Below are positions 9,150 to 59,377 of a DNA stretch of 64,000 bases, piece after piece. Both the position numbers and the translations under genes were made by a program. Position 1 is the first letter of the stretch. The number at the start of each line of letters is the position of its first letter. Origin of the DNA: Planctomycetota bacterium. GTDB lineage: Bacteria; Planctomycetota; JAFGQW01. Below the pieces are notes generated by a model. That model was not told the DNA's origin, ran no database searches, and saw nothing but the letters and a program-made list of their open reading frames with translations. The stretch spans positions 1,450 to 65,449 of the forward strand of contig JAFGQW010000084.1 of assembly GCA_016935485.1 (NCBI GenBank), given 5' to 3'.

Positions 9150-9151
9150 AC

Positions 9152-37102: not shown

Positions 37103-38815
37103 ATGACGGTGTCCCTGACTTCGTGCACGTCGCTCGAACGCGCGGCGCCGTTCCTCCTGCTGCTCGTGCTCCTGGGGGGCTGCGGCGACCGCGACCCGGC
37201 GCCCGCGGCCGGGACTGCGGCGGCGCCCGCGGCCGTGCGGCCGCAGGCCGGCGACCGCCTGAAGCAGCTGCCGGACCGGGCGCAGGCGCCGGTCCCGGAG
37301 GAAGGCCCCTTCCGGTTCCACGATCGCGAGACCCGCCCGACGGCGCGCGACGTGGCCTGGCTGCTGCTCAAGGCGTCCCGCCAGAAGTCGGTCTCCAGGG
37401 AGAAGGTCGGGGTGGAGCTGGTCGGCAGCCTGAAGGGAGTTTCGTTCGGCCACTTGAAGCGCTTCTTCGAGTCGCTCGGGCTGCGGCCGCGCGCGGTCGA
37501 GGAACCGCTCGCGGCGTTCCTGCTGCGTGACACCCCCGGCGTGCTCGCCATGAAGCCCGTGAACCCGGCGCTTCCGGAGTGGGCGTGCAGCTTCCTCCTC
37601 TTCCGCGGCCTCACGCCGGACGGCAAGCTCGAGGTCACCGACCCGCTCACGGGAGCGCACGTGGTGGACGAGGCGGCGCTGGCCGAGCGCTACCTCGGCG
37701 CCGCGTTCTATCTCGAAGAGGACGCGACGGGCCCCCTCCTCGAGGAGGCGGACATCGGCGTGGACGAGATTCACTACAGCTACGACCGCGTCGATGCGGG
37801 CACGCTCGTGCGCAAGACCTTCCGCATCTTCAACCGCGGCGCCGCTCCGCTGAAGATCCTCGGCATCCGCCCGACCTGCGGCTGCCTGGCGACGCCCCTC
37901 CACGAGAAGGGGGCCAAGGTCGCCGATCCCAGGGCCACGTTCAAGCGCAACCCCGACACCGGAGTCTGGGAGATCGACTTCGTGGCCGGGAAGCTCTCCA
38001 CGGTGATCGCGCCGCACGGCGAGGTCTACGTGACCGGCTTCTACGACACGACCAACCGCATCGGACGCCAGCCCACTTCCTTCACCGTCGTGTTCAGCGA
38101 TCCCGACGAGCCCGAGCTCACCTTCGTGGTGGAAGGGTTCGTCACCCAGGTGGCGCAATTCGACCCGCCCGTCCTTCACTGGCCCGAGATCCGGTCGGCC
38201 GAGGGCGCCCGCGCCCACATCTGGCTTCGGAGCACGAAGGGCCGGGACTTCGCGATCGAGCGCATCGAGTTCAAAAACGACCACCTGGCAGTGGCTCTGG
38301 ATCCCGACGCCCCGCGCGAGGCCGCGCCGGTGACGTTCGTGCTGCCGCGCGCCGCGGCGCCGCGGGCGCACCCGGCCGCCGACGGCTGGCAGGCCCTCGA
38401 GGTGCGCGTGAAACCCGGCGCCCCGGTGGGCCCCTTCAACACGGTGATCCAGCTCTCCACCGACCTCACCTCGAGCCCGCTCGCGTTCGGCGCCTGGGGC
38501 ACGGTGAAGGGCAACGTGGTCGTGGAGCCGACGCTCGCGAGCTTCGGCCGCGTGCAGCTCGGCGTGCAGGCAACCGCGCTCGTCCGGATCCACTCGATAG
38601 GCCCGGAGCCCTTCCGGGTCACCGAGGCGGTGGTGAGCCAGCCCCGGCTCATGGACGTGGCGCTCCGCGAAGAGGCGCCGGGCGTCTACGTGGTGGAGCT
38701 TGCCCTAAGGAAGGGCTGGCAGGCGCCCTCGCTGCAGGGTCAGCTCACGGTGCGGACGAACGACTCGCTCGAGCCGGTCGTGCACGTGGAGGTGACGGGA
38801 TTCGTGCAGCGCTGA
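37103..38815 (+). CDS. Lipoprotein with a C-terminal DUF1573 (ASH/Ig-like) domain and an N-terminal domain of unknown function.
   Basis: Lipobox LLGGC. DUF1573 hallmark ([26 protein letters not shown]). Transcribed divergently from the MoxR operon. 570 aa. The start could also be the upstream Met at 37076. Confidence 0.68.
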
Positions 38816-40912: not shown

Positions 40913-41088
40913 GTCTCCATGGAAAACGATGCGAGGCCGGCGCGCAAGGACGTTGTTCCCGCGCCGGCGCCGGCTGGCGGGAAAACGCTGTGCGAATGCG
41001 AGAATATGGGGTAGGCTCTCCTCCTCCGGCCGGTCCGCTGTCGCCGGGCTTTGCGCCGGGGAACCTGCCGCCACAGGAAGGTCCGTTC

Positions 41089-43026
41089 ATGCTACACGCT
41101 CGCCGCAAGCGCCTGCTGCTCGCGATCGCCGGGGTGCTCGTCGTCCTGGGCGGCGCACTGCTCGTCTGGATGGACCGCCATCCGGTCGATGTGCCGTGGC
41201 TCGATGACCGCGACCCCGAAGCGCCATCGATCGACGCCTTCTCGAACGAGGCGGCCCCGGTCCTGCTCATCAGCTCGCTCGAGGACCTGGCCCGCGCCGC
41301 GCGCGCGCGCGACTTCGACCGCATGGACTGGAGCCTCGCCTGGCGGAACCTCCTCGAACAGGAGGTCGGGTGGTTCGCCCACCGGGAGTACGTCGAGCTC
41401 GGCGCCGAGCCGTGGACCGGACGCGCCCTGGTGATCGTCGCCCACAGCGCCATCGCCCGCTGCACGCCGGCGGAGATCGCGGAGCTCGCGGCGTTCGTCG
41501 CGGCCGGCGGCGTGTTGCTGCTGGACCGCCCCGGCCCCGCGTGGGAAGCGCTCTCCGGGCTCAGGCTCGGGCCGGAGCGCCGGCGCGAGGGCCGGATCAG
41601 CGCCGCTGCGCCGGACGTGCTGGCGCCCGAGGTCCGCGCGGAGCTCCAGCGCGCCGGGATCCCGCTGCCCGTGCGCCTCCACGCCCTGGATTCCCCGCTG
41701 GACGCGGGCCTCGAGACGCTGCTCGCATTCGACGGCGAGCCCGCCCTGGTGGCCCGCCCGGCGGGCCGCGGGGCCGTCGTCAGCGTGCTGTTCGATCTGG
41801 GCTGGCTGCTCGTGACCGTCCAGCAGGGCCGGCCCGAGCCCGACTACCGCGTCGCGAAGCGCTGGGGGTTCTACCGCCACCTGCTGGAATCGCACGACCT
41901 GGTCTGGCACGAGTCGTACCTGCGCAACGCCGTCCCCGCCGCCGACGTCCTCGAGCGCGCCGTCCTCGCCGCGGCGTGCCGCTTCGTATCGCTCCCGGTG
42001 TGGTGGGCCTTCCCCCGCGAGGCCATGGGCCTGCTCCTGATGACGCACGACGAGGACGAGTACGGCGCGGACCGGTGCCGGCTGCTGCTCGATCACGAGG
42101 TCTCAATCGGCGCGCGCTCCACGTTCTTCCTGCTGTCCGGCCGCCGCATGGAGGACGGCTGGCCGGCGGACGCGGTCCGTCACTTCGCCGCTCAGGGCGC
42201 CGATCTCGCGCTCCACTGGAACCGGCTGCCGGCCATCACCGGCCTCTGGAAACTCGAGCCGATCGCGCGTGTGTTCGCGCTCGCCGACCAGGTGGACTTC
42301 TTCCGGGAGACGCAGCGGCGGGGCGGGCTGCCCGCCGGCCCGCTGCTCAACCGCAACCACTACCTGATGTGGGCCTCGCCCGCGGAGTTCCGCGCCGGCG
42401 ACACCCACTACACGCGCACCTTCCGGATCCTCCACCGCCACGGCATCGTGATGGACTCCACCTACGGCCCCAACCGGGAGGGACGCGGCTACCTGTTCGG
42501 GACGGGGCGGCCCTTCCATCCGCTCGACGTCGACGGCAAGCACATCCCGCTGCGAGAGATGCCGTTCTTGAGCCAGGAGGACTGGGGCGGCGAGGACGAG
42601 GCCTGGTTCGGCCGGCTGTTCGCCGAGAGCGAGGCGTGGTACCACAGCGCGATCTGCTGCATCTTCCACCCGCACCTGATCGTCCGGGAGGAGGCCGGAG
42701 AGCGCCTCTGGAAATCGGTCTACGCGAGCGCCGCCCGCCACCGCCATGCGGCCGTGAGCTTCCGCGAGTATCACGACTTCCTGGAGGCGCGGCGCGCCAG
42801 CCCGCTCCGCTTCGCGCGGGCCGACGACGGCGCGCTGCGGATCGAGTGCGAGGCCGAGGGGCCCGACCTGGCCGTGCTGCTGCGCGGCACCGTGCACGCG
42901 GTCGAGCTCGACGGCCAGCCCGTCGACCGACCGGGAACCTTGTCGCTCGACGGCCAGCGCTGCACGCTCGTGGCGGTGCCCGCCGGACGGCACGTCCTCG
43001 TGATCCGGGATGGAAACAGTCGTTGA
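41089..43026 (+). CDS. Hypothetical N-terminally membrane-anchored, two-domain periplasmic protein. The first domain may be class-I glutamine-amidotransferase-like, and the second has acidic His/Asp-rich motifs, possibly hydrolase- or deacetylase-like.
   Basis: Internal Met of ORF 40990..43026 with an AGGAAGG RBS. Single TM segment (LLLAIAGVLVVLGGALLVWM). 645 aa. The domain assignments are weak. Confidence 0.45.
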   Translation: MLHARRKRLLLAIAGVLVVLGGALLVWMDRHPVDVPWLDDRDPEAPSIDAFSNEAAPVLLISSLEDLARAARARDFDRMDWSLAWRNLLEQEVGWFAHREYVELGAEPWTGRALVIVAHSAIARCTPAEIAELAAFVAAGGVLLLDRPGPAWEALSGLRLGPERRREGRISAAAPDVLAPEVRAELQRAGIPLPVRLHALDSPLDAGLETLLAFDGEPALVARPAGRGAVVSVLFDLGWLLVTVQQGRPEPDYRVAKRWGFYRHLLESHDLVWHESYLRNAVPAADVLERAVLAAACRFVSLPVWWAFPREAMGLLLMTHDEDEYGADRCRLLLDHEVSIGARSTFFLLSGRRMEDGWPADAVRHFAAQGADLALHWNRLPAITGLWKLEPIARVFALADQVDFFRETQRRGGLPAGPLLNRNHYLMWASPAEFRAGDTHYTRTFRILHRHGIVMDSTYGPNREGRGYLFGTGRPFHPLDVDGKHIPLREMPFLSQEDWGGEDEAWFGRLFAESEAWYHSAICCIFHPHLIVREEAGERLWKSVYASAARHRHAAVSFREYHDFLEARRASPLRFARADDGALRIECEAEGPDLAVLLRGTVHAVELDGQPVDRPGTLSLDGQRCTLVAVPAGRHVLVIRDGNSR

Positions 43027-43153
43027 CTCGCTTGCCCACACGGCGCCTTCCTCCCCGCTCTGTCCGGGTCCCGCACCGGGATTCGTGCGCGGCCTAAAGG
43101 CCAGCCGTAGGCGCGACGATAGGAACAGCGAAGCGAGGAGCCCTGCTGCGACC

Positions 43154-45490
43154 ATGGAGCCGCATGTACCCGCGCCACCCCCAGCGCCCGATCCCGGGGA
43201 CCGGCTGCCGGCGGTAACCGCCTTCCTCTCCAGCTTGCTCAAGCTGGTGCGTATCCTCCGGCTCTACCCCGCCGGCCATCCGCTGATCGCGACGGCGACG
43301 GCAGAGCTGCGCGGTGCGCGGGCGGCCCTGGACGAGACAACGCACATCGCCGTGGACCACCGGACCGGCTCCCTGGTTCTCGACGGCACGCGGGTCGTGC
43401 CGCTGCCCCGGAGCCTCGGCCTCCTCGACAAGCTCCTCATCGAGCAGAAGGCGGACGTCCTGGCGATCAGCGGCGCCGCCGGCGAGACCGAGATCGTGTC
43501 CCTGGCCGCGCGGCTCGCCCGGCCCGAGGATCCGGCGGCGGCGGACCGCGACCGCGACGACCGTCACCCGGGAGTGCAGCTCGTAGCGGCCGGTGTCATG
43601 CCCGTCCTCGACCCGGCACTCGCCGCGGCCGTGGCGGCCCCGTTCTCGCTTGCGCGACTGCTCGCGGCGGCCTTTCCCTTCCGCACGCCCACCGCAAGCG
43701 TTCCGATCCCGTTCCAGGCCTGGGCGTGCCCTTCCCTGGACGGCTCCTCCTCGGCCCTCGAGCAGGTCCACGACGTGGCGCAGACCCTGCACCGCGATCC
43801 CGCCGGCCTCGCCCGCCGGGTGATCGCCGCCGCCGGAGAGCGGCTCGCAGGCGCCGAGAACGACGCCCCCGAGGACCTGCTGCGCGCGCTCGCGCACGGC
43901 CTCGAGCGGCTGGTCCTGGCGCGCCTGGACGAGGATGGCGGCGGCCTCGCCGAGGCGCGCGACACCGTGAACCGGGTCGTCGCCCCGCTCGCGCCCGGCT
44001 TTCTCCGGCGCCTGCTCCCCACCGGATCGGACGGCGCCTCCCGGGCGGACAGACTCCTCCAGCACTTCTCGCCGCCGACCCGCATCCGCCTCCTCAAGGC
44101 GGCGGTCCGCGACGGCGGGCTGGACCGCACGGAGTTCTCTCGCCTCCTGGAGGCGCTCACCGCCGACGCCGCGGACGAGGAGAACCTGTTGACGCTCCTC
44201 TCCCAGGAACTCGACCGTGACACCGCGCCCGCCGCCGAGCGCGAGCCGTGGCTTGCCGTCATTGGCTCGAGCTGCCCGCGGCGCCGGCGCCGCGCCGTGG
44301 TGCTTCTCCTCGCCGGCGACGCCGAGACCGCCGCGCGGGTCCAGGCCGCGCTCGAGGAGCACGGCCTCACGGTCCACGTGCTGAGCAACGGCGCGCGGCT
44401 GGTGGGCGAGGTGGAACGGCTCGCGCCGGACGTCGTGATCCTGGACCCGCAGCAGCGGGGCACTCCGGGGCTGCCGCTCATCGCCGCCCTGCGCCGGGCG
44501 GGCAGCCGCCGGCGCGCGGTTCCCCTCGTCGTGTTCACCCACGAGGAGTCGTTTCGCCACGACTTCGAGGTCATGAGCTACCCCGGGTGCCGGTTCCTCC
44601 TCGCCGACGAGGGGCTGGATCGACTGCGGGCATGCCTCGACGAGATGCTGGCCGCGGAGCCACCGCCCGTCTCCACCGCCGGGCGCCCCGTGCCGAGCAA
44701 CTACCGGCCGGCTTCCGAGATCGCCCGCGGCCACCTCTACGTGCCCCGGTTCGAAATCCTCACCTTCTTCGAGCCCGGCACCGGCGAGACGACGACCTTC
44801 CTCGACATCGTTCCGCTCACCGCGAGCCGCACGGTGATGCTGCTTGCCGACGGTTTCCGGCCGGACGACGGCCGGGACGACACGGCCGTTGCCGTCCGCG
44901 CGGCAATGCGCGAGCTGATGGACTCGGGAGCCGAGCCCCGGGCGCTCATCGACGCCCTGAACACGCTCTTCCACGAGCACTTCGCCGGCCGGCCGCTCAT
45001 CACGGCGCACGCGGTCCTGGTCGATTCCGAACGGCCGGCGATCACCAGCTGCCTTGCCGGCGGCGTGCGACCGATCCGGATTGACGCGCTCGGGGACAGC
45101 GAGGAGATCGCTCTTCCCACCGGAATCGTGCTCGGTTTCTCACCCGCCGGCGTCTTCAAGCACACGCTGCAGGAGCGCGTGCTGCCGGTCGGCGCGGGCG
45201 ACAGCGTGCTGATCTTCTCGCACGGCCTGGCCCGGACGCTCGGCGAGGGCGAGGAGCAGCGGGCCTTTCGCCGCATTCGCCGCGAGATGGCGCTGGCGTA
45301 CCACGAGACGCGCGCCCCGGCCTCGCCGTTGCTGCTTGCACGTGACCGGATCGCCGCGGCGGTCCAGGGGGCTGGGGAGGCAGCCACCGATCGCGCCGCC
45401 ATCTGGATCCGCAACCTCGAGCGCCGGGCGCCCTCCCGCCCGACGACCCGGCGGCGTCCCGCGCCGGCACGCCGGACAGCGGCGCCATGA
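43154..45490 (+). CDS. Response-regulator receiver domain fused to a PP2C/SpoIIE-type phosphatase (RsbU-like), with a ~350-aa N-terminal region of unknown function.
   Basis: REC segment (AVVLLLAGDAETAARVQAALEEHGLTVHVL...DVVILDPQQRG...PLVVFT). PP2C motifs (TFLDIVPL...MLLADGFRPDDGRDDTAVAVRAAM...GDSVLIFSHGL). The start is uncertain (ATG 43154 versus ATG 43010). Confidence 0.75.
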   Translation: MEPHVPAPPPAPDPGDRLPAVTAFLSSLLKLVRILRLYPAGHPLIATATAELRGARAALDETTHIAVDHRTGSLVLDGTRVVPLPRSLGLLDKLLIEQKADVLAISGAAGETEIVSLAARLARPEDPAAADRDRDDRHPGVQLVAAGVMPVLDPALAAAVAAPFSLARLLAAAFPFRTPTASVPIPFQAWACPSLDGSSSALEQVHDVAQTLHRDPAGLARRVIAAAGERLAGAENDAPEDLLRALAHGLERLVLARLDEDGGGLAEARDTVNRVVAPLAPGFLRRLLPTGSDGASRADRLLQHFSPPTRIRLLKAAVRDGGLDRTEFSRLLEALTADAADEENLLTLLSQELDRDTAPAAEREPWLAVIGSSCPRRRRRAVVLLLAGDAETAARVQAALEEHGLTVHVLSNGARLVGEVERLAPDVVILDPQQRGTPGLPLIAALRRAGSRRRAVPLVVFTHEESFRHDFEVMSYPGCRFLLADEGLDRLRACLDEMLAAEPPPVSTAGRPVPSNYRPASEIARGHLYVPRFEILTFFEPGTGETTTFLDIVPLTASRTVMLLADGFRPDDGRDDTAVAVRAAMRELMDSGAEPRALIDALNTLFHEHFAGRPLITAHAVLVDSERPAITSCLAGGVRPIRIDALGDSEEIALPTGIVLGFSPAGVFKHTLQERVLPVGAGDSVLIFSHGLARTLGEGEEQRAFRRIRREMALAYHETRAPASPLLLARDRIAAAVQGAGEAATDRAAIWIRNLERRAPSRPTTRRRPAPARRTAAP

Positions 45491-45909
45491 GTCTGCGCGC
45501 GGCCGAGCGCCGGCTCCGCGCGCTCTACCGGCGCGTCGATCGGCAGGTCGCCGCCGCCGGACCCGTCTGCACCCGGTCCGGGCGCTGCTGCGATTTTGCC
45601 CGCTCCGGCCTGACGCTCTTCGCCACCGCGCTCGAGACGGACCTGGTCCTCGCCGCGCACGCGCCCCCGGCCCCGGAGCGCGCCGGGGCGTGCCCGTTCC
45701 AGCGGCACGGCCTCTGCACGATGCGCGCGCTCCGGCCGCTGGGGTGTCGGGTCTACTTCTGCGATCCCCGCTACCTCGCGACGGCCATGAGCGGCATCGC
45801 CGAGTCCGCCCAGCGCGCACTCAGGCAGATTCACGAGGAGCACGGCGTCCCCTACCGCTACGCCCCGTTCCTGGAGCTCCTCGCGCGACCGCGGCCGGCA
45901 CCAGCGTGA
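45487..45909 (+). CDS. YkgJ/UPF0153-family protein (putative Zn/Fe-S-binding CxxCxxCC domain).
   Basis: Its ATG overlaps the upstream stop (ATGA). Motifs CTRSGRCC, CPFQRHGLC and GCRVYFCDPRY. 140 aa. Confidence 0.72.
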   Translation: MSLRAAERRLRALYRRVDRQVAAAGPVCTRSGRCCDFARSGLTLFATALETDLVLAAHAPPAPERAGACPFQRHGLCTMRALRPLGCRVYFCDPRYLATAMSGIAESAQRALRQIHEEHGVPYRYAPFLELLARPRPAPA

Positions 45910-46036: not shown

Positions 46037-48058
46037 ATGGATCCGCATCGACCGCGCGCGGCCGAGGCCCCGGCTGCCGGACCCGCTCGGGCTCATCTGG
46101 GGTTCGTCTGCCTCACGCTGGCGGTCGTGCTCGCCGCCACGCTGGTCGCATTCGACGAGGCCCCCGGGCTGTGGGGGCTCGGCGGCTGGGGCGATGCGCG
46201 CCTGCCCTTCCTGGTGGCCGCCGCGGCCGCGCTGCTCGTCCTCGTGGTCGTCAGACCGCTCGCCGCGCGGCTCGGCGCGGCGGTGCTGGCCGTTCCGCTG
46301 CCGGTCCGCGGCATCGGCCCCTTCGTGGTCGGGCTCCTCGTCGTGCCCGTCTTCTACGCGCTGCGCACCTCGGTGCTGGTCGGCGACTGGCGTCTCGTGC
46401 TCGAACGTCTCGCGCTCGATCTCTACTATCCCTCCAGCCTCTGGACGGACTACCTGTTCCGGCTGGCCCAGGCGGCCGGCGGCCGGTCCGGGTTCTTCCC
46501 CGACGACGCCATCGCGCTGGTATCCGCGGCGAGCGGCGGCGTGTTCGTCGCCTTCCTGCTCCGCCTCGCCGGCGAGCTGGGGGACACGCCCGGCCGCCGC
46601 CGCTTCCTCTTCTGGTTCCCGCTCGTGAGCGGCGCCACCCTGATCTTTTTCGGCCACCTCGAAGCCTACGGCCCCGTGGCCGCCGGACTGGTCGTGTTCC
46701 TCGATCTGCTGGTGCGCGCCCGCCGCGGCCGCCTGCACCTTGCACTGCCGGGATTCGCGCTGGGCGCCGCGGTCTGCCTCCACGGCGTGGCCCTGCTGTG
46801 GCTCCCCCCGTACCTGGTGGCGGTCGTCCGCTGGAGCGCGACCCACCGCCTGCGCCGCCTGCTCCTCAGCGTGCTCCTGTTCCTGCTGCCCGTGGCGGTC
46901 TCGGCCGCGGTTCTCTTCTTCGTGCACTGGGGCGCCCGCCCGCCCGACGACCCGGCGCTGCGCCACGGGACCTTTCTCGGCGCCGCGGGCCAGGGGCTGA
47001 TCACGCCCCTCACCCGCGCGGCGGCGTCGGAGGCGCACGTCTACGTGCTCGCGGAGGCGCGCCACTGGATCGACCGGTGGAACGTGCTGCTGCGGCTCGC
47101 GCCGATCGCGCTGGTGCTCGCCCTGCCGGCACTGGGGGCGCGCGGCCGGCGGCGCTTTCCGCGCGACCCGATCCGGGCCGACCTCCACGACCACCTCGCC
47201 CTGACGCTGTGCCTCTCGCTGCTGTGGCTGGCGGTGCACAACCTCAGCTACCCCGCCGCCCACGACTGGGACCTCTTCGCCCCGATCGGCTTCCTGCTCG
47301 CGCTGCTCGCCGCGAGCGCGCCGGGCGTCCCCCATCCGGAGCGCACCGCCGGCTGGCTCGCGCTCGCGGCCTTCACGGCGCTGCCCTGGTGGGCGACGGC
47401 GATCGCGCCGCCGGCCTACAAGGCCGCGGCGGCGCACTACGCGCTGGCACGCGTCTACCAGGAGATCGGCGGACCGCAGGCGGAGGCCGCCTTCCTGCAC
47501 CACCTCGACCGGGCCGCCTCCCGCGGCACCCGCCCGCATCGGCTCGCGGTCAAGACGCTCGGCGTGTATTACGCCTCCCGCGGCCAGCCGCAGGCCGAAC
47601 GCTGGCTCCAGCTCGGCGCCGACGCCTACCCCTGCGACGCCGAGATCCGCGCCAATCTCGGGCTTTACCACTACAGCCTGAAGAAGTACGCTCCCGCCCT
47701 GGAGCATCTGCGCGCCGCGGTCGCGCTCGCGCCCGACGCCCCGCTCTTTCACCGCGATCTTGCCCGGCTCCTCTTCGAGATCCAGGACCACGAGGAGGCC
47801 TATGCCCACTTTCGCCGCGCGGTGGAGCTCCGGCCCGACGACCGCGAGCTCGTGGACGACGCGCTGCGGGCGGCCTGGAAGGTGAACCGGCCGCGCGAAG
47901 GCCTGGCCTTCCTTGCCCGGCTGCACGAGCACCACCCCGAGGACCGCGAGATTCTCGAGCGCCTCTTCGAACTCGAGAAGCAGGCGGGCTCGCTCGAGAA
48001 AGCGCGCCACTACCAGCAGAAGCTGATCGAGCTCGCCAGCCGCCGCCGCGACGAGTGA
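46037..48058 (+). CDS. Polytopic membrane protein with C-terminal TPR repeats (O-antigen-polymerase / TMTC-like architecture).
   Basis: 673 aa. About 11 TM helices followed by a ~230-aa TPR-like helical tail (YALARVYQEIGGPQAEAAF...LGLYHYSLKKYAPALEHLRAAVALAPD...). Confidence 0.62.
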   Translation: MDPHRPRAAEAPAAGPARAHLGFVCLTLAVVLAATLVAFDEAPGLWGLGGWGDARLPFLVAAAAALLVLVVVRPLAARLGAAVLAVPLPVRGIGPFVVGLLVVPVFYALRTSVLVGDWRLVLERLALDLYYPSSLWTDYLFRLAQAAGGRSGFFPDDAIALVSAASGGVFVAFLLRLAGELGDTPGRRRFLFWFPLVSGATLIFFGHLEAYGPVAAGLVVFLDLLVRARRGRLHLALPGFALGAAVCLHGVALLWLPPYLVAVVRWSATHRLRRLLLSVLLFLLPVAVSAAVLFFVHWGARPPDDPALRHGTFLGAAGQGLITPLTRAAASEAHVYVLAEARHWIDRWNVLLRLAPIALVLALPALGARGRRRFPRDPIRADLHDHLALTLCLSLLWLAVHNLSYPAAHDWDLFAPIGFLLALLAASAPGVPHPERTAGWLALAAFTALPWWATAIAPPAYKAAAAHYALARVYQEIGGPQAEAAFLHHLDRAASRGTRPHRLAVKTLGVYYASRGQPQAERWLQLGADAYPCDAEIRANLGLYHYSLKKYAPALEHLRAAVALAPDAPLFHRDLARLLFEIQDHEEAYAHFRRAVELRPDDRELVDDALRAAWKVNRPREGLAFLARLHEHHPEDREILERLFELEKQAGSLEKARHYQQKLIELASRRRDE

Positions 48059-48083: not shown

Positions 48084-50858
48084 TCAGGGCACGCCCGCTT
48101 CACCCGCCAGGTAGCGAGCGCAGCGCAGGCCGAGGAACTTCGTGCGCAGGACCGGCGGGTAGCCGACCCGCGTGTTCACGCGCAGAAACTCGGGCGAGTG
48201 GAACCAGGACCCGCCCCGGACCAGGTAGCCGCCGGCCTCGGGATGGGGCTCGAGGCACCACTCCATGACGTTTCCGGCCATGTCGTGGCAGCCGAACGGC
48301 GAGCGCCCTTGCGCCAGGGACATCACCGGAAGGGGTCCGGCCGCGTCGCTCCCGAGGTAGTTGGCGTAGTGCCGCTGGGGCGCGCCGTCGCCCCACGGAT
48401 AGACGGCCTCGGGCACGCCGCGCGCCGCCAGGACCCAGGTGGCGTCGGTCATCAGGCTCTTGCCGGCCCACCGGGCGTAGGCGTAGGCGTCCCACCAGTC
48501 CACCCCGACCACGGGCAGGTCGTCGGCCGCCAGCGCGGGATCTCCCCAGAACGCCGGCGTGCGGTCCTTGCCGGTCGGCTCGGAGGGATGCGAGTAGCGG
48601 CGCGGTTCGGCCGCCTCGCGGCTCCACTCGAGGAAGCGCCGGTACTGCGCGTTGGTGACCTCCGTGACATCCACGAAGAACGGCTCGGTCGTCGAGCGCC
48701 GCGGTCGGCCGCGCCCGTCGCGCACCACGAACTCCACCCCGGGAACGCGCACCATGTAGGACCGGTCCTTCAGCGAGAAGAACTTGTCGCCGCGCGGCTC
48801 GAGCTCGGGCGGCACCCACCCGGGGTGGTGGAGCTGGATCCGGGTGATCTCGCTCCGGTGTCCAGCCCGGTCCTCCACCGCGAAGCTCAGCTCAGGGTGG
48901 AGTCCGCTCACCGGCACCGTGAATGTGAAGCGCCGCTCCTCGAGGGTCACGTCCTGCTTCTCGGGTTCGCACCAGACCGCCGCGATCGGCTCGCTCGCCT
49001 CGCCGCGCACCACGACCTGCGAGGCCTCGAGCACGGCGCCGGACCGCGGCTCGAACGCGGCGATCGTCGGCGGCCGGGTGTCGACGTGCACCGCGAGCTC
49101 GCGCACCAGCAGGTTGTCGCCGTGATCCCGGATCTCGATGCGGAACGTGTGGTCCCCCTCGGCGAGCCCGCGGCAGGCGAACGTGGACACGCCCTCGGCG
49201 TCCGGGGGCGCCACCTCGGCGCCCAGGCGGACCTCCTTGACGGGGTACTGCCCCAGGTGGACCTGGATCTCGCACTCCGCGGCGGTCAGCAGGGGTCCGG
49301 GAGGCGCCAGCGTGATCCGGAGCGCCTGGCCGATGCTCTCGTGAATGCGGTCGCGGATGGCGAGCAGGCGGTCGCGCGATTCCTCGCCGAATCTCAGCCC
49401 CAGGCGATACGTCTCCTGCGCCTCGAGCAGCCGCCCTTGCGCCGCCAGGGCGTCGCCCCAGAGCGCGTAGACGTGGGAGATTCCCTCACTCACCTCGGCG
49501 CGATCGGCGACGAGTTTCCCGGCCTCCTGGTACGCGTCGAGCGCAGCCGCGAATCTTCGCGCGCCGAGCTGCTGCGCCGCGTGCGCAAGCGCCGCGGCGA
49601 AGCGCTCCTCGGGCGTCGGCGCCGCCGGAGGCCCGGGCGGAGACGGTACCTCGGAAGCCGCCGCAGGGGCCGGCGCGGCGGGCGTCGGCGCGACAGCGGC
49701 CGGCGCGACCGGCGCCGCGGCAGGCGTCGCCGCGGCAGGCGGCGCCGGCGGACGCGCCGTCACGGACGCCGGCACCGGCCGCGGCTTATGCCGCGCGGTC
49801 TCGGCCCGGGCCGCAATCGCCCGGTCCGGCGGGGTCTGCCGGCGCTGGTGCTGGTAGAAGAACACTGCCCCCGCCACCGCCACCACCGCCACGGCAGCCG
49901 CCGCCACCAGCCCGAGCGGCCGGGGCCGCCGCGGCGGCCCCGCGCCGACCGCCGCCGCCGGGACCTCCAGGCAGGCGCGCACCTCGGCGGCCGTCTGGAA
50001 ACGCTCGTCGGGGTGCTTGGCCAGGCAGCCGAGGATGACCTGCTCGAGAGGCTCCTCGATGGAGGCGACGAGCTCGGAGGGCGCTTGCGGGACTTGGTGT
50101 ACGTGCGCGTACGCCACGTTGCCCTCGACGAACGGTGGCCGCCCGGTCCGGAGCTCGTAGAGGATGCAGCCCAGCGCGTAGAGATCGCCGCGATGGTCCA
50201 TGCCCTGGTGGAGCAGGTCCTCGGGCGGGGCGTAGGCAACCAGGCGGGCCCGGTTGGTGACCTCGCGATTCAGGGCCGTACGCTGCTCGCGGAGCAGGCG
50301 GGCCAGTCCGAACCCGCGCACCTTGATCGAGCCGTCGTCGAGGATCCAGACGTGCTCCGGACGCAGGTCGCGGTGGATGATCCCCGCCGCGTGCGCGGCA
50401 TCGAGCGCGCGGAGGATCTCGAGGCCGATAGCGTCGGCCTCGGCGGGCGCAAGCTGGCCGCCCTGGGCGAGAAAGGCGGCGAGATCCTGGCCGTCGAAGC
50501 GGTCCTCCACCAGGTAGCCGCACCGCTCGCCGGTCACGTAGTCCAGCACCCGGACGATGGCGTCGTCCCGGAGCTGGGTGAGGATCTCGACCTGCATCAT
50601 GAGCTGCTTCTCGAGTCGCTCGCTGGAGGTCAGCTCGGCCGGCAGGCGCGTGAGCACCACCTCGCGGTTGAGCTCGTGGTCGAAGGCCGGACGGGTCTCT
50701 CCGATGGCGCTCATCCCGACGGGACCGGTGGCCTCGAAACGCCCGAGCAGCAGCGATTCACGCGAGGAGGCCTCGGCGCCCGCTTTCCGCCCCCCGGGAG
50801 AAGACCCGGTCGCTCCACCGGCACCCGCGTTTGCCTCGGACGGTCTTGCTTCGGACAT
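48084..50858 (-). CDS. Membrane-spanning fusion protein. An N-terminal cytoplasmic Ser/Thr-kinase-like domain with degenerate catalytic motifs (a predicted pseudokinase) is followed by a TM helix, a Pro/Ala-rich linker, and a C-terminal FGE-sulfatase (formylglycine-generating-enzyme-like) domain.
   Basis: Start at MSEARPS with an AAGGAG RBS. Kinase subdomains are recognisable, but VAIK becomes VVLTRL, HRDLKPEN becomes HRDLRPEH, and DFG becomes GFG. TM segment LVAAAAVAVVAVAGAVFFY. FGE motifs RGGSWF and LGLRCA. 924 aa. Confidence 0.82.
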   Translation of the reverse strand: MSEARPSEANAGAGGATGSSPGGRKAGAEASSRESLLLGRFEATGPVGMSAIGETRPAFDHELNREVVLTRLPAELTSSERLEKQLMMQVEILTQLRDDAIVRVLDYVTGERCGYLVEDRFDGQDLAAFLAQGGQLAPAEADAIGLEILRALDAAHAAGIIHRDLRPEHVWILDDGSIKVRGFGLARLLREQRTALNREVTNRARLVAYAPPEDLLHQGMDHRGDLYALGCILYELRTGRPPFVEGNVAYAHVHQVPQAPSELVASIEEPLEQVILGCLAKHPDERFQTAAEVRACLEVPAAAVGAGPPRRPRPLGLVAAAAVAVVAVAGAVFFYQHQRRQTPPDRAIAARAETARHKPRPVPASVTARPPAPPAAATPAAAPVAPAAVAPTPAAPAPAAASEVPSPPGPPAAPTPEERFAAALAHAAQQLGARRFAAALDAYQEAGKLVADRAEVSEGISHVYALWGDALAAQGRLLEAQETYRLGLRFGEESRDRLLAIRDRIHESIGQALRITLAPPGPLLTAAECEIQVHLGQYPVKEVRLGAEVAPPDAEGVSTFACRGLAEGDHTFRIEIRDHGDNLLVRELAVHVDTRPPTIAAFEPRSGAVLEASQVVVRGEASEPIAAVWCEPEKQDVTLEERRFTFTVPVSGLHPELSFAVEDRAGHRSEITRIQLHHPGWVPPELEPRGDKFFSLKDRSYMVRVPGVEFVVRDGRGRPRRSTTEPFFVDVTEVTNAQYRRFLEWSREAAEPRRYSHPSEPTGKDRTPAFWGDPALAADDLPVVGVDWWDAYAYARWAGKSLMTDATWVLAARGVPEAVYPWGDGAPQRHYANYLGSDAAGPLPVMSLAQGRSPFGCHDMAGNVMEWCLEPHPEAGGYLVRGGSWFHSPEFLRVNTRVGYPPVLRTKFLGLRCARYLAGEAGVP

Positions 50859-51116
50859 GGAGGGATCTCCTTGCGCATCGCCTGCCAGCATCGGAAGCGC
50901 GGCCACACCGTGGGGCGCGGCCACACCGGAGTTTTTCGGCATGGGCGCCCTCCAGCCTGAGCCCGGCCCGGGTTCCCGCCCCGCGCCGGCCCGGCCGCTT
51001 CCGCCGGCGGGCGCACCTGGTAGAATGCCGCGGCAGTCCGCTTCGAGAGACGGCAGCGATCCGGAGCGCGGCAAGCCCGGGCATGCCGTGACCTTCGGAA
51101 CCGGAGGCGCCAGACG

Positions 51117-51476
51117 ATGCCGCACGTGACGATCGAGGGCGCGCTCGACCTCCGGGCGTTCTCAGGCGAGTTCATCCCCGTCGTCGAGCAGCTCCCCTGG
51201 GGCCTCCTCCGGATCCGCAACGTCTACCTCGACGCCCGCGGTCGCACGCTGCTGTTCGAGGCCCTGGCCATGGAAAGCGGGGCGGGGCGCAGTTTCCTGG
51301 TCCGCGTCGAGACCAAGCGATCCGACCGCCACATGGTGCGCCTCGACCCGATCGTGCCGGTGGACCGGACCCGCGGGGTCCGGTCGGCCGTGGTCTGGGT
51401 GGCGCGGAGGCTCCGCGACCGCAACCCCGGCTGCGCGTTCGGCACCACCAACCTCGCGGAGCTCGCCGGGTCCTGA
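51117..51476 (+). CDS. Hypothetical small protein (119 aa).
   Basis: ORF with coding-like composition, divergent from the kinase-FGE gene. No motifs recognised. Confidence 0.4.
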   Translation: MPHVTIEGALDLRAFSGEFIPVVEQLPWGLLRIRNVYLDARGRTLLFEALAMESGAGRSFLVRVETKRSDRHMVRLDPIVPVDRTRGVRSAVVWVARRLRDRNPGCAFGTTNLAELAGS

Positions 51477-52975: not shown

Positions 52976-53452
52976 TCACGCGCCTTCCTCGAACTCCTTC
53001 AAGACGTCGTGGATCTCCGCCTTCTTGCGGGCCTTGCGCATGAACTGACAGTAGAGCTTGTTGCGCACCATCGAGGAGATCTTCTTCAGGATGTCGAGAT
53101 GCACGTCGGCCTGGTCCAGCGGCGCGAAGAAAAGGAAGAACAGGTAGACCGGCTCGCCGTCGACGGCGTTGAAGTCGATGCCCTTCTCGCTGCGCCCGAT
53201 GGCGCCCAGGACGTCGTCGATGAGATCGGTCCGGATGTGCGGGATCGCCACGCCGCCGCCGATTCCCGTCGAGCCCTCCCGCTCGCGCGCCAGCAGCTCC
53301 GCGACCAGGTCATCCACGACCGAGCCGGGGAAGGCCTCGTTCGCCACCAGCAGCTCGACCAGTTCCCGGATCACGCCCTCGGCGTCCGTCGCCTTGAGCT
53401 TCTCGGTGATGACTTTCCGGGAGAATACGTTGTGGAGTTTGTAGTTCTTCAT
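52976..53452 (-). CDS. ptsN: PTS EIIA component of the fructose/nitrogen-regulatory type (PtsN-like).
   Basis: Start at the internal ATG (MKNYKLHNVF). Phosphorylatable His context (GGGVAIPHIRT). 158 aa. Confidence 0.8.
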   Translation of the reverse strand: MKNYKLHNVFSRKVITEKLKATDAEGVIRELVELLVANEAFPGSVVDDLVAELLAREREGSTGIGGGVAIPHIRTDLIDDVLGAIGRSEKGIDFNAVDGEPVYLFFLFFAPLDQADVHLDILKKISSMVRNKLYCQFMRKARKKAEIHDVLKEFEEGA

Positions 53453-53564
53453 CTGCTCCGAGGCCTCTCCACCCAACCGCTCGCCATCCAGGCCGCTCCC
53501 GCCGTGATTCCGGGTCGCACACGCACCGCGCGGTCCGGCCGGCACCGGTGCGGTCCGGCCGGCG

Positions 53565-54011
53565 CTAGTGGTTGTCCAGCAGCTCCCAGAGGTCGTTCAC
53601 CTCCAGGTTGCGAATCGTGACGTGGTTGAACTCCTGCTCCTGGGCCAGCCGCGCGATCCGGGCCAGCATCTCGGTGTGGATCTGGATGCCGATCCTGGGC
53701 GAGATGAACTGGAAGACGAGATGGACCGGCCGGTCGTCCGGCGCCGCCCACGCGATGCCATCCACGCTCCGTCCCAGCACCGCCCGCACGTGCGCGACGC
53801 TCGTCACCCGGGCGTGCGGGATGGCCACGCCGTGGCCGATCGCCGTGGAGGCGAGCCGCTCGCGCTCGAGGATCTCCTCCTCGATCCGACCGGCCTCCGC
53901 GGCATCCATGCCGCCCTGCACCGCAAGTCCGTGCATCAGCTCGCGGATGGCCTCGAACCGATCCGACGCCTTGAGGTCGTGAATCTTCAGCTCGATCTTG
54001 TGGTCCGCCAT
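53565..54011 (-). CDS. Second PTS EIIA(Fru/Ntr-type) paralogue.
   Basis: 148 aa. His context (GHGVAIPHARV). Same fold pattern as the previous gene. Confidence 0.8.
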   Translation of the reverse strand: MADHKIELKIHDLKASDRFEAIRELMHGLAVQGGMDAAEAGRIEEEILERERLASTAIGHGVAIPHARVTSVAHVRAVLGRSVDGIAWAAPDDRPVHLVFQFISPRIGIQIHTEMLARIARLAQEQEFNHVTIRNLEVNDLWELLDNH

Positions 54012-54084
54012 GCCTGGCTCCTGGTTCGCTGGATTCCGGCTCGCCTATCGTGCCGCGTTGCCCCCCCTGCGGGCAGCGATTATG

Positions 54085-54140
54085 ACCGCAAATTAAGCCG
54101 GATCCAGAGACCTTGTTCAACTCCTTTTTCACCCGACCTC
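54085..54140 (-). promoter_or_regulatory. AT-rich island in a >70% GC background, immediately upstream of the EIIA genes. It is a candidate internal promoter or operator.
   Basis: The segment gattatgaccgcaaattaagccggatccagagaccttgttcaactcctttttcacc is visibly AT-rich. It contains TTGAAC and CATAAT hexamers on the minus strand, but their spacing is not canonical. Confidence 0.3.
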
Positions 54141-54174
54141 CAGCCGGCCTCACCGCGTGCCGGCCGCACGCCAC

Positions 54175-55920
54175 TCATGGCACCGGCACCGCGAAGCATC
54201 GGGTATTCTCCGCGTCCAGGAGCGCCGCGATCTCGCGGCGCGAGCCGAGCTTCAGCGCGCGCGCCGCGAGCCGTCGGGCCTCGCTCACGTTCACCTGCTG
54301 GATCCGTCGCCGGAGCGGCGGCAGCAGGAACGGCGAGACGCTCAGCCGCCGGTAGCCCAGCCCTAGCAGCAGCATCGTGTTCTCCAGGTCGGCCGCCATC
54401 TCGCCGCACATCGACAGGGACTTGTTCGCCGCACGCGCTGCGCGCGCCAGCTTCGCCAGCAGCGTGAGCATCGCGGGATGCAGGGGCTGGAAGAGATGCG
54501 CCACCCGCGGGTTACCGCGATCGACGGCCAGGGTGTACTGCGTCAGATCGTTGGTGCCCACGCTGATGAAATCCGCCAGCGCCAGCAGGCTCCGGATGTT
54601 GAGCGCGGCCGCGGGCACCTCCACCAGCACGCCAAGTGGAACGTCGGCGCGGTGCTCGACGCCCTCCGCTTCGAGCTTCGCGCTGGCCTCCCGGAAGATC
54701 TCTCGCGCGCGCTCCAGCTCGCTGCGCGTGGTGATCAGCGGCAGCATCGCCCAGGCGTTGCCGTACACCGCCGCCCGCAGGATGGCGCGGATCTGCGGCA
54801 AGATGATCTCGGGCCGCTGCAGGCACAGCCGGATGGAGCGGCACCCCATCATGGGGTTGTCCTCGTGGCCGGCCTTGAGGTAGCTGATCACCTTGTCCCC
54901 GCCCGCATCCAGGGTGCGGATCACGACCTCCTTGCCGGCCGCCCGCTCGCACAGGTCCCGGTAGATCCGGAACTGCTCCTCCTCGCTCGGCAGCCGGTTC
55001 GAGGTCATGAAGAAGTACTCGGTCCGGAAGAGTCCCACGCCGTCCACCGTCTTGACGATCTCCGCCGTCATGTCCTCCGGCCGGTTGACGTTGGCCAGCA
55101 GCGTGACCCGCACGCCGTCCCGCGTGTGCACCGGACCCGCCTCGTACAGCTCGCAGACATCGGCCCGGATCGTGGCCTGGCGCTGGCGGTACGCCGCGAG
55201 CGTCGCGGGCTTCGGATTGACGATCACCGTGCCCGTGGTGCCGTCGACGATCAGGCGCGCCGCCGGATGCAGCGCCGAGAGCAGGCCCGGAATCCCGCAC
55301 ACCGCCGGAATGCCGTAGGAGCGGGCGAGGATCGCCGTGTGCGACGTCGCCCCGCCCAGCTCCGAGATGACGCCCAGCAGCTTGGCGCGGTCGATCCGGG
55401 CGGTCTGGGACGGCAGGAGCTCGCGGGCCGCCACCACGAACGGCTCCTCCGGGGTGAGGATGGCGCGCTGGTAGCGATCGATGTGCATGTTGAGGAGCTG
55501 TGTGCACACGTCCTTGATGTCGATCGCGCGCTCCCGGATGAGGATCTCCTCGAAGGCGTCGAACTTCTCCTCGTAGCTCTCCATCACCGTGGTGATGGCC
55601 GCGGCCAGCGACCGCTGGTTCTCCGCCACCTGCCGCTCGATCTCCCCGACGAGGCTGGGGTCCTCGAGCAGCATGAGGTGCGTGCGGCGGATCCCCTTCT
55701 CGGGTCCGGTGGCGGAGGCCTGGGCGCGCTCGATCTCCTGCTTCAAGGCCGTGACGGCGGCGCGGAGACTGTCGAGCTCCCGATCGATCTCGCTCGGCTT
55801 GACGGTGGCCGCGTCCCGGTCGACGGCGGGCAGCCCGACCAGGAAGAGCCGCCCGATGGCGATGCCCGGCGAGACGGGCAAACCGCGCAGGACGACCTCG
55901 CCGGCCTTTCTCGGGTTCAT
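54175..55920 (-). CDS. ptsI: Phosphoenolpyruvate-protein phosphotransferase (PTS Enzyme I).
   Basis: Start at the internal ATG (MNPRKAG) with an AAGGAGAG RBS. EI signatures (GGATSHTAILARSYGIPAV active-site His region, PEP-utilising C-terminal domain motifs). 581 aa. Confidence 0.92.
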   Translation of the reverse strand: MNPRKAGEVVLRGLPVSPGIAIGRLFLVGLPAVDRDAATVKPSEIDRELDSLRAAVTALKQEIERAQASATGPEKGIRRTHLMLLEDPSLVGEIERQVAENQRSLAAAITTVMESYEEKFDAFEEILIRERAIDIKDVCTQLLNMHIDRYQRAILTPEEPFVVAARELLPSQTARIDRAKLLGVISELGGATSHTAILARSYGIPAVCGIPGLLSALHPAARLIVDGTTGTVIVNPKPATLAAYRQRQATIRADVCELYEAGPVHTRDGVRVTLLANVNRPEDMTAEIVKTVDGVGLFRTEYFFMTSNRLPSEEEQFRIYRDLCERAAGKEVVIRTLDAGGDKVISYLKAGHEDNPMMGCRSIRLCLQRPEIILPQIRAILRAAVYGNAWAMLPLITTRSELERAREIFREASAKLEAEGVEHRADVPLGVLVEVPAAALNIRSLLALADFISVGTNDLTQYTLAVDRGNPRVAHLFQPLHPAMLTLLAKLARAARAANKSLSMCGEMAADLENTMLLLGLGYRRLSVSPFLLPPLRRRIQQVNVSEARRLAARALKLGSRREIAALLDAENTRCFAVPVP

Positions 55921-56136
55921 GACTCTCCTTGTTGCATCGATCGGGCACGATCTCAAGGGCGGCGTGCGCCCGGCCGTGGAAATGGCGCCGCGTAAAGGTT
56001 CCCGCGCCGGCTTTGACGATGGAAGCCCTGCGGACTACGATGGCCCGGGTCCGGCCCCGCGCTCCCGGTCGGGCCCGCGAGGCGCCGGGTCGGCAGACCG
56101 GAGCCCGATGGACCGCGCTGCCGGCGAAGGCCAGCC

Positions 56137-57860: not shown

Positions 57861-58925
57861 TTGTCCTTGAGAAACCTCTTCGACGTCGGTCCCGAGGAGC
57901 TCCGGGCGTTCGTCGCCGGGCTGGGCGCGCCGCGATTCTGCGCCGAGCAGGTCCTGCACTGGATCTACCGGCGGCGGGCCGATCGCTTCGGTGCGATGGC
58001 CAATGTCCCCGCGTCCGTGCGGCGCGCGCTTCAAGCCGAGTACCGCTTCGGCGTCCTTGCCCTGCTCGAACGCCAGCAGAGCGGCCGGGATCTCACCACC
58101 AAGTTCCTGCTGGGGCTGCCGGAAGGCGACGGGATCGAAGCGGTCTTCATGCGCGACCGCGACCGCGTCACCGGCTGCCTCTCCGTGCAGGCCGGCTGTC
58201 CGCTCGCCTGCCGGTTCTGCGCCACCGGCTACGCGGGCTTCACCCGCAACCTGAGCGCCGGCGAGATCGTCGAGCAGCTGCACATCATCGCCCGCACCCT
58301 CGATCCGCCCACCCATGTCGTCTACATGGGCATGGGCGAGCCGCTCCTCAACGTGGCCGCGGTGATGGATTCCATCCGGCGGCTGACCGACCCGGCCGCC
58401 TTCGGTCTGTCCCCGCGGCGGATCACGGTCTCGACCGCGGGGATCGTGCCGGGCATCGAGCGCCTCGCCACGCTCGAGCGGCCGGTGAACCTGGCGCTGA
58501 GCCTCCACGCTCCGAACGACGCGCTGCGCGCCGAGCTGATGCCCATCAACCGCCAGTATCCCCTGGACCGGGTGATCCCCGCGCTCAAGCGCTATCTCCG
58601 CGAGACCGGGCGGAGAATCACGCTCGAGTACATCATGATCGCCGGGTGCAACATGGAGGCGGCGCACGCTGCCGAGCTGGCCGCAATCGCGCGCGAGAAC
58701 GCGGCGCGGATCAACCTTGTCGCGTTCAACCCGGTGCGCGAGAGCGGCTTGCGGACCCCCAGCGCCGAGGAGGAAGGCGCGTTTCGCGACCGGCTCCGCG
58801 CGCTGGGCGCGGACGCCATGATCCGGTTTCGGCGCGGCCGCGACATCAACGCTGCCTGCGGTCAGCTCCGCGGCCGGCGCCTCGAGACCCGCAGCGAACC
58901 CGACCGCACAGCGCGGCGGCGCTAG
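57861..58925 (+). CDS. rlmN: 23S rRNA/tRNA (adenine-C2)-methyltransferase, radical SAM.
   Basis: Cx3Cx2C (CPLACRFCATG). RlmN-specific downstream motifs (MGMGEPLLN, Cys in GCN...). 354 aa. Confidence 0.92.
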   Translation: MSLRNLFDVGPEELRAFVAGLGAPRFCAEQVLHWIYRRRADRFGAMANVPASVRRALQAEYRFGVLALLERQQSGRDLTTKFLLGLPEGDGIEAVFMRDRDRVTGCLSVQAGCPLACRFCATGYAGFTRNLSAGEIVEQLHIIARTLDPPTHVVYMGMGEPLLNVAAVMDSIRRLTDPAAFGLSPRRITVSTAGIVPGIERLATLERPVNLALSLHAPNDALRAELMPINRQYPLDRVIPALKRYLRETGRRITLEYIMIAGCNMEAAHAAELAAIARENAARINLVAFNPVRESGLRTPSAEEEGAFRDRLRALGADAMIRFRRGRDINAACGQLRGRRLETRSEPDRTARRR

Positions 58926-59068
58926 CGGTCGTTGAACTTGTCCCAGATCGCCCGACCCCGGCGCCGACGGCGCCTCAGGATCGCCCGGCCGCCCCGGGTC
59001 TTCATCCGGGTGCGGAACCCGAACCGCTTCTTCGCCTTCAAGGTGGACTTGCGTATGCGAACTTTCAT
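58922..59068 (-). CDS. rpmH: 50S ribosomal protein L34.
   Basis: 48-aa product MKVRIRKSTLKAKKRFGFRTRMKTRGGRAILRRRRRRGR... matches the L34 consensus core (HGFRxRMxTxxGRxVLxRRRxKGR). Convergent with rlmN, overlapping by 4 nt. Confidence 0.72.
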   Translation of the reverse strand: MKVRIRKSTLKAKKRFGFRTRMKTRGGRAILRRRRRRGRAIWDKFNDR

Positions 59069-59377
59069 GGGCGCACCCGATCTGAGTGGCGTCACTCCCT
59101 GGGCCGGGCTCGACGGGATCCCGCCCGGTGCTCCGCGCCTCCGGACCGCTCGGCCGGGCGCGGGGAGTGCAAGCATAGCCCGGAATCCCCGCTTGACCAG
59201 CGTTTTCGGCGCGTGCCGCCCCGCCCGGTCGGCGCGCGCCCGCGCCCTGCCCGGGGCATTCCGCTTTCGCCTCGAAGATGCTACGCTGGTCGAGGACTGG
59301 CCGGTCGCGGGGGGCCGGGGGCAGGCGCCCTGTGGCGCGCCTTGAAGAACGACCACGAAGCCGAGGAGAGCGGAATC

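Follow-up and report, generated by a model that had tools for sequence, protein, structure and literature searches.

The DNA analyzed here (the window, a stretch of 64,000 nucleotides [nt] from Planctomycetota contig JAFGQW010000084.1) carries on its minus strand a gene for a 924-amino-acid (aa) protein in which a kinase-like domain is joined across the membrane to a domain resembling formylglycine-generating enzyme (FGE), and it raises the question of whether either domain can still be an enzyme and, if not, what such a protein might do. The open reading frame (ORF) extends from an ATG at 50856–50858 to a stop codon at 48084–48086. Because this ATG is preceded by the Shine-Dalgarno-like sequence AAGGAG with an 8-nt spacer, and because the alternative start, a GTG at 51125, would overlap the divergent gene beginning at 51117, we took the 924-aa product as the best call. 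The G+C content at third codon positions (GC3) was 0.89, typical of coding genes in this window of 72% G+C. Pfam identified a Pkinase domain (PF00069) at residues 46–289 with 118 bits (cut-off 31.7) and an FGE-sulfatase domain (PF03781) at residues 713–915 with 130.9 bits (cut-off 23.3), whereas a scan of the same protein against NCBIfam gave only partial matches below threshold, to PASTA kinases, EgtB, and GldK. The presence of a pseudokinase-FGE membrane fusion, first noticed in a preliminary description made from the sequence alone, was thus confirmed.

We placed the kinase motifs by HMMER alignment to structures of Mycobacterium tuberculosis PknB, together with MAFFT alignments. Residues 38–297 aligned unambiguously to PknB (E 3e-36), and the substituted motifs quoted in the preliminary description were all located and aligned as it had claimed. 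Thr70, within VVLTRL, occupied the position of the β3 lysine, PknB Lys40, and Gln89 stood in place of the αC glutamate, PknB Glu59. The catalytic loop read H162-R-D164-L-R166-P-E-H169 opposite HRDVKPAN of PknB, so that the Asp of HRD (Asp164) was retained, while Lys was replaced by Arg166 and Asn by His169. Opposite DFG lay G182-F-G, in which Gly182 replaces the Asp, and the Gly-rich loop (residues 47–55) was degenerate, with GMSAIG instead of the GFGGMS of PknB. The concern that the catalytic Lys and Asp might be present but shifted by misalignment was met by the same alignment, which put Thr70 and Gly182 at those two positions.

The substitutions were not peculiar to one copy. When six kinase-bearing members of the family were aligned with 242 other kinase domains retrieved for comparison, the position of PknB Lys40 was Thr in all six and Lys in 237 of the 242; that of Lys140 was Arg in 6/6 and canonical in 236 of the others; that of Asn143 was His in 6/6 and canonical in 240; and that of Asp156, the DFG aspartate, was Gly in 6/6 and Asp in 241. 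The orthologues read GFS at this last site, where the window copy has GFG, and the combination of Thr, His, and Gly was confined to the pseudokinase family. Changes extended to the Gly-rich loop, in which G18 was Trp in five of the six members and G20 was Ser or Asn in all of them, giving an orthologue pattern W-x-(S/N)-x-x-G, and to the activation loop, in which the position of Thr171 held Thr in one member and Q or N in the other five (Thr in 193/242 others). The ‘GT’ motif of the P+1 loop was also lost from the family. At the αC Glu position the six members had Q, V, E, E, E, and E, a relaxed pattern that is expected because the Lys partner of this residue is gone. In contrast to these losses, the HRD Asp was kept in 6/6, and the new Arg166 and His169 were invariant.

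The fold itself appears to be preserved. In the AlphaFold2 (AF2) model the block means of the predicted local distance difference test (pLDDT) for the kinase domain were mostly 77–94, falling to ~59–71 at residues 191–210, and the top Foldseek match of the kinase domain from the full-length model was PknB (6i2p), with a template-modeling score of 0.81, normalized to the target. As judged from alignment and model, then, the cytoplasmic domain is a Hanks-type (eukaryotic-like) protein kinase fold, and the substitutions support the conclusion that canonical ATP-Mg binding and phosphotransfer have probably been lost from it. The claim that the kinase side is dead has therefore become firmer, since substitutions affect the Gly-rich loop and four positions involved in catalysis or in binding ATP/Mg, the changes are fixed in 6/6 kinase-bearing orthologues, and the domain carrying them is under selective constraint, as described below.

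Orthologues were few. A word-indexed homologue search with the full-length protein returned generic kinases at 25–35% identity and no orthologue among the matches listed; the low-complexity linker is likely to have contributed to this miss. A scan of GTDB species genomes yielded one full-length orthologue, L001, from an uncultured Planctomycetota metagenome-assembled genome (MAG), which covered residues 16–923 with 46% identity in the best tblastn segment, along with many Planctomycetota and Verrucomicrobiota proteins sharing the FGE domain alone or a canonical kinase. When 1.84 billion cluster representatives were searched exhaustively with HMMER, only four clusters of orthologues were recovered, namely P0241, P0242 (the L001 protein), P0243, and P0121, a fragment; after these, scores fell from 371 bits for P0243 to generic multi-domain matches. 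Inspection of the genomic contexts of a conserved neighboring gene, discussed below, added the orthologues L087, L088, and L085/L086, the last with a length of 984 aa and 81% identity to L001. At least five lineages at ~50% identity carry the pseudokinase family, and all kinase-bearing orthologues came from related uncultured Planctomycetes. The ORF was intact in the window, L001, L081, and L085/L086. In L083 (7606–9092) the orthologue was split into two called genes, of 609 aa and 421 aa, by a 1-nt frameshift near residue 495. Because L083 is a 449-kb long-read contig (named ‘ctg...l’) and the reading frame resumes perfectly past the shift, we treated the split as probably an assembly indel, the alternative being a genuine disruption.

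We estimated ratios of nonsynonymous to synonymous substitution (dN/dS) by the Nei-Gojobori method for the L001/L085 pair, for which dS was ~0.3–0.4 and not saturated. The values were 0.225 for the pseudokinase domain, 0.237 for the TPR-like domain, 0.241 for the Ig-like domains, and 0.156 for the FGE-like domain, compared with 0.391 for the transmembrane (TM) helix and linker. Every folded domain is under purifying selection, the pseudokinase similarly to the rest. Across four lineages ~50% identical to one another, 79 of the 265 pseudokinase positions were invariant, and the activation segment (GFSVARILRDQQTAL) and the αF region were among the best-conserved stretches of the domain.

Active proteins of similar design gave an indication of where the family came from. 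Three of them (P0288, P0300, and P0328) have the layout kinase, TM helix, Ig repeats, FGE, with the canonical Lys, HRDIKPxN, DFG, and GxGGMG, and their FGE domains carry the same subtype motif as the pseudokinase family, HPxEPxxKDxTPxF/W ... PVVGVDW(W/F)DA(Y/W)AYA. Other Planctomycetota kinase-FGE proteins were likewise catalytically canonical. The family is best read, on these shared motifs and layout, as a pseudokinase offshoot that would have arisen from active receptor kinases.

The part of the protein beyond the membrane proved more elaborate than first described. The preliminary description had connected the kinase to the FGE domain by a TM helix and a Pro/Ala-rich linker of ~60 aa; both the helix and the linker are there, but ~270 folded residues, comprising a TPR-like and two Ig-like domains, intervene between the linker and the start of the FGE-like domain at about residue 686. 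Residues 341–430 contain 32 Ala and 23 Pro, and the linker varies in length and sequence among orthologues, with a mean identity of 0.27. In the first full-length AF2 model the C-terminal FGE half was poor (pLDDT <50), most likely because kinase-only proteins were misaligned there in the multiple sequence alignment; a model of the ectodomain only (residues 413–924), made with a cleaner alignment, had a mean pLDDT of 93.4 and a predicted template-modeling score (pTM) of 0.74 and showed four folded parts.

The terminal domain has the FGE-sulfatase fold (PF03781) and lacks the copper-binding cysteine pair of formylglycine-generating enzyme. RGGSWF was found at residues 881–886 and GLRCA at 910–914, in keeping with the preliminary description, which had suggested that the domain may be a ligand-binding module and not an enzyme. 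When a profile built from the family and related proteins was aligned to solved FGEs, the first Cu-binding Cys of FGE fell within an insertion of three residues, ‘lCH’, that the present domain lacks, and the second aligned to Pro889 of RGGSWFHSPEF; in the translated sequence there is no Cys between Cys868 and Cys913. In human FGE the Cu(I)-binding catalytic cysteines are Cys336 and Cys341. The best sequence match of the domain in the PDB was pFGE/SUMF2, the non-catalytic paralogue. Pfam detected no DinB domain in the 924-aa protein, in which Ig-like domains precede the FGE-like domain instead, and an EgtB-like iron site was therefore also excluded. Membership in two named groups was considered and rejected: the EgtB/OvoA/SenA synthases (TIGR03440, 43.2 bits, cut-off 360; SenA, 37.7 bits, cut-off 420; no DinB) and the PorK/GldK ring lipoproteins of the type IX secretion system (TIGR03525, 56.8 bits, cut-off 350), the N-terminus here being a cytoplasmic kinase fold and no lipoprotein signal being present. 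Conservation within the protein is highest in the FGE-like domain, with a mean pairwise identity of 67% and 123 of 232 positions invariant, and the near-universal LPTEAEWE motif is replaced in the window copy by SLMTDATWV. This high conservation, combined with departure from the usual motif, points to a specialized binding function that is under constraint.

We propose, with a probability of roughly 0.6, that the protein is a non-catalytic membrane receptor or scaffold, built from a dead Hanks kinase fold, a TM helix, and a TPR-Ig-FGE-like ectodomain and derived from active receptor kinases. According to this proposal, the cytoplasmic fold would have lost canonical ATP-Mg binding and phosphate transfer, and past the TM helix and the Ala/Pro spacer a periplasmic stack of one TPR-like and two Ig-like domains would end in an FGE-like (C-type-lectin-related) domain without a copper site. 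The family would have descended from catalytically active receptor kinases with the kinase-TM-Ig-FGE layout, belonging broadly to one lineage with it, and been kept under purifying selection. The FGE-like domain at its tip might bind an envelope or periplasmic ligand together with the Ig and TPR domains, and the pseudokinase domain would relay the signal without catalysis, as an allosteric partner of, or a docking scaffold for, another protein; such a scaffold or allosteric role, also suggested in the preliminary description, may reasonably be inferred. By analogy with HER3-type receptors and MviN, the most plausible partner would be a catalytically active Hanks kinase whose gene lies at another locus of the genome, and a less likely one the polytopic TPR membrane protein whose gene is always adjacent.

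Several points weigh against this proposal. The 64-kb window contains no gene for a second Hanks kinase, for an FHA protein, or for a protein that would be an obvious output, so that the partner kinase or FHA protein which the preliminary description had recommended looking for was absent from this stretch. The contacts used in the back-to-back N-lobe dimer of PknB are only partly kept, equivalents of Arg10 and Asp76 being present and the position of Leu33 being L, A, or T. The strict conservation of the HRD Asp and of the new His169 is compatible with an unconventional activity, and some proteins without the β3 Lys still bind nucleotide or catalyze other reactions (WNK, SelO, SidJ). Finally, the constant association with the adjacent gene may mirror the relatedness of the genomes, housekeeping neighbors being 71–79% identical between the window and L081.

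The third of these points leads to the alternative that the domain is an atypical kinase or a nucleotide transferase using non-canonical residues, for instance the pair Asp164 and His169, or a Lys moved to another site as WNK kinases have it. In addition to the invariance of these residues and of Arg166, purifying selection on the cytoplasmic domain and the precedents just named for active ‘pseudokinases’ speak for such an enzyme. Non-canonical ligand binding has also been raised for bacterial pseudokinases (10.1101/2025.01.12.632604). However, both Mg-coordinating residues (Asn143 and the DFG Asp), the β3 Lys, and two glycines of the Gly-rich loop are gone, and the αC Glu position drifts (Q, V, E). 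A WNK-like relocation was rejected, as no substitute Lys or Arg is conserved in the β1–β3 region across the family alignment and the sole Gly-loop Lys is limited to the L001/L085 lineage; overall we consider a non-canonical enzyme unlikely. Nor does the number of inactivating substitutions, even when added to the frameshift near residue 495 in L083, make a good case for a receptor-kinase gene that is decaying into a pseudogene and has no function of its own. That frameshift is of a kind typical of assembly indels, the ORFs listed above are intact, identical substitutions are fixed across lineages ~50% identical, and dN/dS is 0.16–0.24 in all folded domains. As the dead kinase fold is constrained like the other folded domains and contains conserved stretches of its own, simple decay is excluded; we regard a decaying gene as very improbable, and among the rival explanations it alone is clearly disfavored.

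Two further alternatives involve the 673-aa protein encoded by the convergent neighbor, a polytopic membrane protein with C-terminal TPR repeats whose family comprises only 7 clusters in 5.8 billion proteins. It is 100% identical to an NCBI protein from a Planctomycetes MAG; an exact-sequence look-up of the 924-aa protein itself gave no match, probably because the start of its gene has been called differently in that record. The pseudokinase gene is the immediate convergent neighbor of this gene in every context recovered (L001, L081, L083, L085/L086, L087, and L088). With this partner, the protein could form a structural or assembly factor of the envelope that does not signal, in which the kinase fold serves for docking or anchoring and the ectodomain binds an envelope polymer. 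Convergent genes, however, are not co-transcribed; the genomes with the gene pair are related and share wider synteny, so that the linkage may be simply inherited; and the membrane domain of the neighbor gave no sequence match in Pfam, NCBIfam, or the PDB. The pairing is known from genome position. Since the genomes are related, we did not take synteny as proof of a functional link, and we view a structural role as possible but doubtful. A more specific version holds that the two proteins make up a lineage-specific membrane machine in which allosteric control runs from the dead kinase fold to the 10–12-TM neighbor (a membrane enzyme or transporter) or in the reverse direction, the ligand being sensed by the TPR-Ig-FGE ectodomain. 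This is a speculative arrangement that we think improbable; if true, it would be a bacterial receptor pseudokinase with an output other than another kinase. A non-catalytic receptor or scaffold working through a partner kinase is the reading we prefer to each of these.

The coordinates of the gene, its domains, and the two flanking genes are collected in Table 1.

Table 1. Positions in the window of the putative receptor pseudokinase gene, its predicted domains, and flanking features
Feature	Position	Strand	Basis
Whole gene, 924-aa putative single-pass membrane receptor pseudokinase	48084..50858	−	ORF list and translation; Pfam Pkinase and FGE-sulfatase
Cytoplasmic Hanks-type pseudokinase domain (predicted), residues 36–300	49959..50753	−	Pfam, PknB alignment, AF2, Foldseek, dN/dS
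Single TM helix, residues 315–338	49845..49916	−	Kyte-Doolittle peak of 2.59, the sole one in the protein; AF2 helix 317–338
Ala/Pro-rich disordered linker, residues 339–412	49623..49844	−	Composition; pLDDT <50
TPR-like five-helix domain, residues 416–512	49323..49613	−	AF2 models
Two Ig-like β-sandwich domains, residues 514–592 and 599–675	48834..49319	−	AF2 models
FGE-like module (pFGE/EgtB C-domain fold) without catalytic cysteines, residues 686–917	48108..48803	−	
Shine-Dalgarno-like AAGGAG, 8 nt 5′ of the ATG at 50858	50867..50872	−	Direct sequence reading
Convergent neighbor, 673 aa, ~10–12 TM helices and C-terminal TPR repeats	46037..48058	+	Pfam TPR at 521–607; TM peaks
119-aa orphan protein, divergent from the pseudokinase gene	51117..51476	+	Upstream in three lineages

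In tblastn the 119-aa orphan protein matched L001 and L081 at 51–52% identity but did not match L083, and Pfam, NCBIfam, and the PDB gave no match to it. On the far side of the 673-aa neighbor lies a DUF4350 protein gene (40990–43026), followed within 43010–45909 (plus strand) by a gene for an 826-aa protein with receiver (REC) and SpoIIE/PP2C phosphatase domains after a long N-terminal region; the end of the latter is overlapped by 4 nt by a gene for a Cys-rich 140-aa protein, which is weakly CxxCxxCC-like. The REC-SpoIIE and 140-aa genes are syntenic in L001, L083, and L085, and several relatives bear an extra 516-aa gene that is missing from the window. All three proteins (the phosphatase, the 140-aa protein, and the DUF4350 protein) recur beyond the 673-aa neighbor in several lineages, not all. 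We considered a partner-switching link with the REC-SpoIIE phosphatase and rejected it, as no STAS or anti-sigma partner was found and the 140-aa neighbor has only its weak CxxCxxCC-like character. The sole other kinase-like gene in the window is an 846-aa ORF at 8291–10831 (plus strand; N-terminus possibly over-extended) with an ABC1/UbiB atypical kinase-like domain (256 bits).

Several other loci were noted. At 52976–55956 (minus strand), Enzyme I of the phosphotransferase system (PTS) is followed by two separate EIIA genes (PTS_EIIA_2, Ntr-type), and neither EIIB nor EIIC is encoded close by, an arrangement suggestive of a regulatory (nitrogen-type) PTS and found again in L081. The stretch 32383–37650 (minus strand) contains consecutive genes for a MoxR-type AAA ATPase, a DUF58 protein, and a large membrane protein resembling the transglutaminase TgpA; a VIT-VWA protein is encoded at 3469–5541. 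Two gene calls probably need adjustment. The ORFs at 35809–37650 (minus strand, with MoxR) and 37040–38815 (plus strand, with DUF1573) both have coding-like GC3 and overlap by ~600 nt on opposite strands, and the true start of the DUF1573 gene is probably well downstream of 37040. In the long ORF at 58922–60220 (minus strand) only the C-terminal 40 residues match ribosomal protein L34; rpmH is probably this short 3′ part and the remainder likely a spurious high-G+C ORF.

Bacterial Hanks-type pseudokinases have been catalogued only recently, and almost none has a known mechanism. Seven families have been described from RefSeq and UniProt (10.1101/2025.01.12.632604). In four of these (ActPs1, ActPs2, ActPs3, and GLW) the HRD Asp is lost in 97–100% of members, together with the VAIK Lys and the DFG Asp (10.1101/2025.01.12.632604); as the HRD Asp is kept in all six members here, membership in these four was rejected on the family descriptions. 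Of the other families, DYD lacks the Lys in 60% of its members and CP1 in 34%, DLHK carries four additional C-terminal domains, and, comparing by description only, none of the three is reported with an FGE-sulfatase domain, which the bSTK Atlas lists with the active Proteo1 family (10.1101/2025.01.12.632604). Our homologue searches showed that fusions of serine/threonine kinases with FGE domains are common; the preliminary description had placed such fusions in Myxococcota and Actinobacteria, and the host here is instead a Planctomycetes MAG. A Planctomycete pseudokinase of the Hanks type was not found described in full-text literature searches. We conclude from sequence comparisons that this is a new, very small, metagenome-only, Planctomycetes-restricted family of a known kind, apparently set apart from the catalogued ones in that it keeps the HRD Asp while losing the Lys, the Asn, and the DFG Asp, a pattern outside the catalogue descriptions as far as these could be checked. 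Because kinase families shed catalysis repeatedly, its existence will not surprise the specialist, and practical impact is limited by the uncultured hosts and the tiny size of the family. Its intact close relatives with the shared receptor architecture nevertheless offer a clean natural active/dead pair for studying the loss of catalysis, and its ectodomain adds to the instances in which the FGE fold serves outside the cytoplasm without being an enzyme.

Among known systems, the closest are those active kinase-TM-Ig-FGE receptor kinases (P0288, P0300, and P0328, and the tandem-FGE proteins P0123, P0125, and P0246), which share layout and FGE subtype; residues 565–914 of the query align to these proteins at 32–36% identity. 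They keep the VA(V/F/I)K Lys and LPTEA(Q/E)WE along with the other canonical motifs, whereas the pseudokinase family has T, RPEH, GF(G/S), a Trp/Ser Gly-rich loop, SL(M/L/I)xDxxWV, and an extra membrane-adjacent TPR-like domain. PknB/Stk1 is the best match in sequence and structure and has the same topology, with an N-terminal kinase, one TM helix, and an extracytoplasmic sensor, but differs in that the catalytic residues are lost here and Pfam finds no PASTA domains; assignment as a PASTA kinase was rejected, since NF033483 reached 187.5 bits (cut-off 450) over the kinase part only (residues 36–298). MviN of M. tuberculosis (Rv3910) likewise has a bacterial Hanks-fold pseudokinase domain on a membrane protein, and this domain reportedly works without catalysis, serving in its phosphorylated form as the site where FhaA docks. 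MviN has been placed in ActPs3, in which the HRD Asp is missing from 97% of members and the activation loop is often missing (10.1101/2025.01.12.632604). The present family, in contrast, retains the HRD Asp, and its activation segment is of full length and highly conserved; the domain attached to the kinase fold is a TPR-Ig-FGE ectodomain instead of the MurJ flippase of MviN, and the phylum differs too. In pFGE (SUMF2), the non-catalytic paralogue of human FGE, the shared fold is a soluble single-domain protein of the endoplasmic reticulum, whereas here it would form the distal tip of a bacterial membrane receptor. The eukaryotic receptor pseudokinases HER3/ErbB3 and plant BIR2 have a ligand-binding ectodomain, a single TM helix, and an impaired kinase fold that acts via partners; the concept is alike, and the evolutionary origins are independent.

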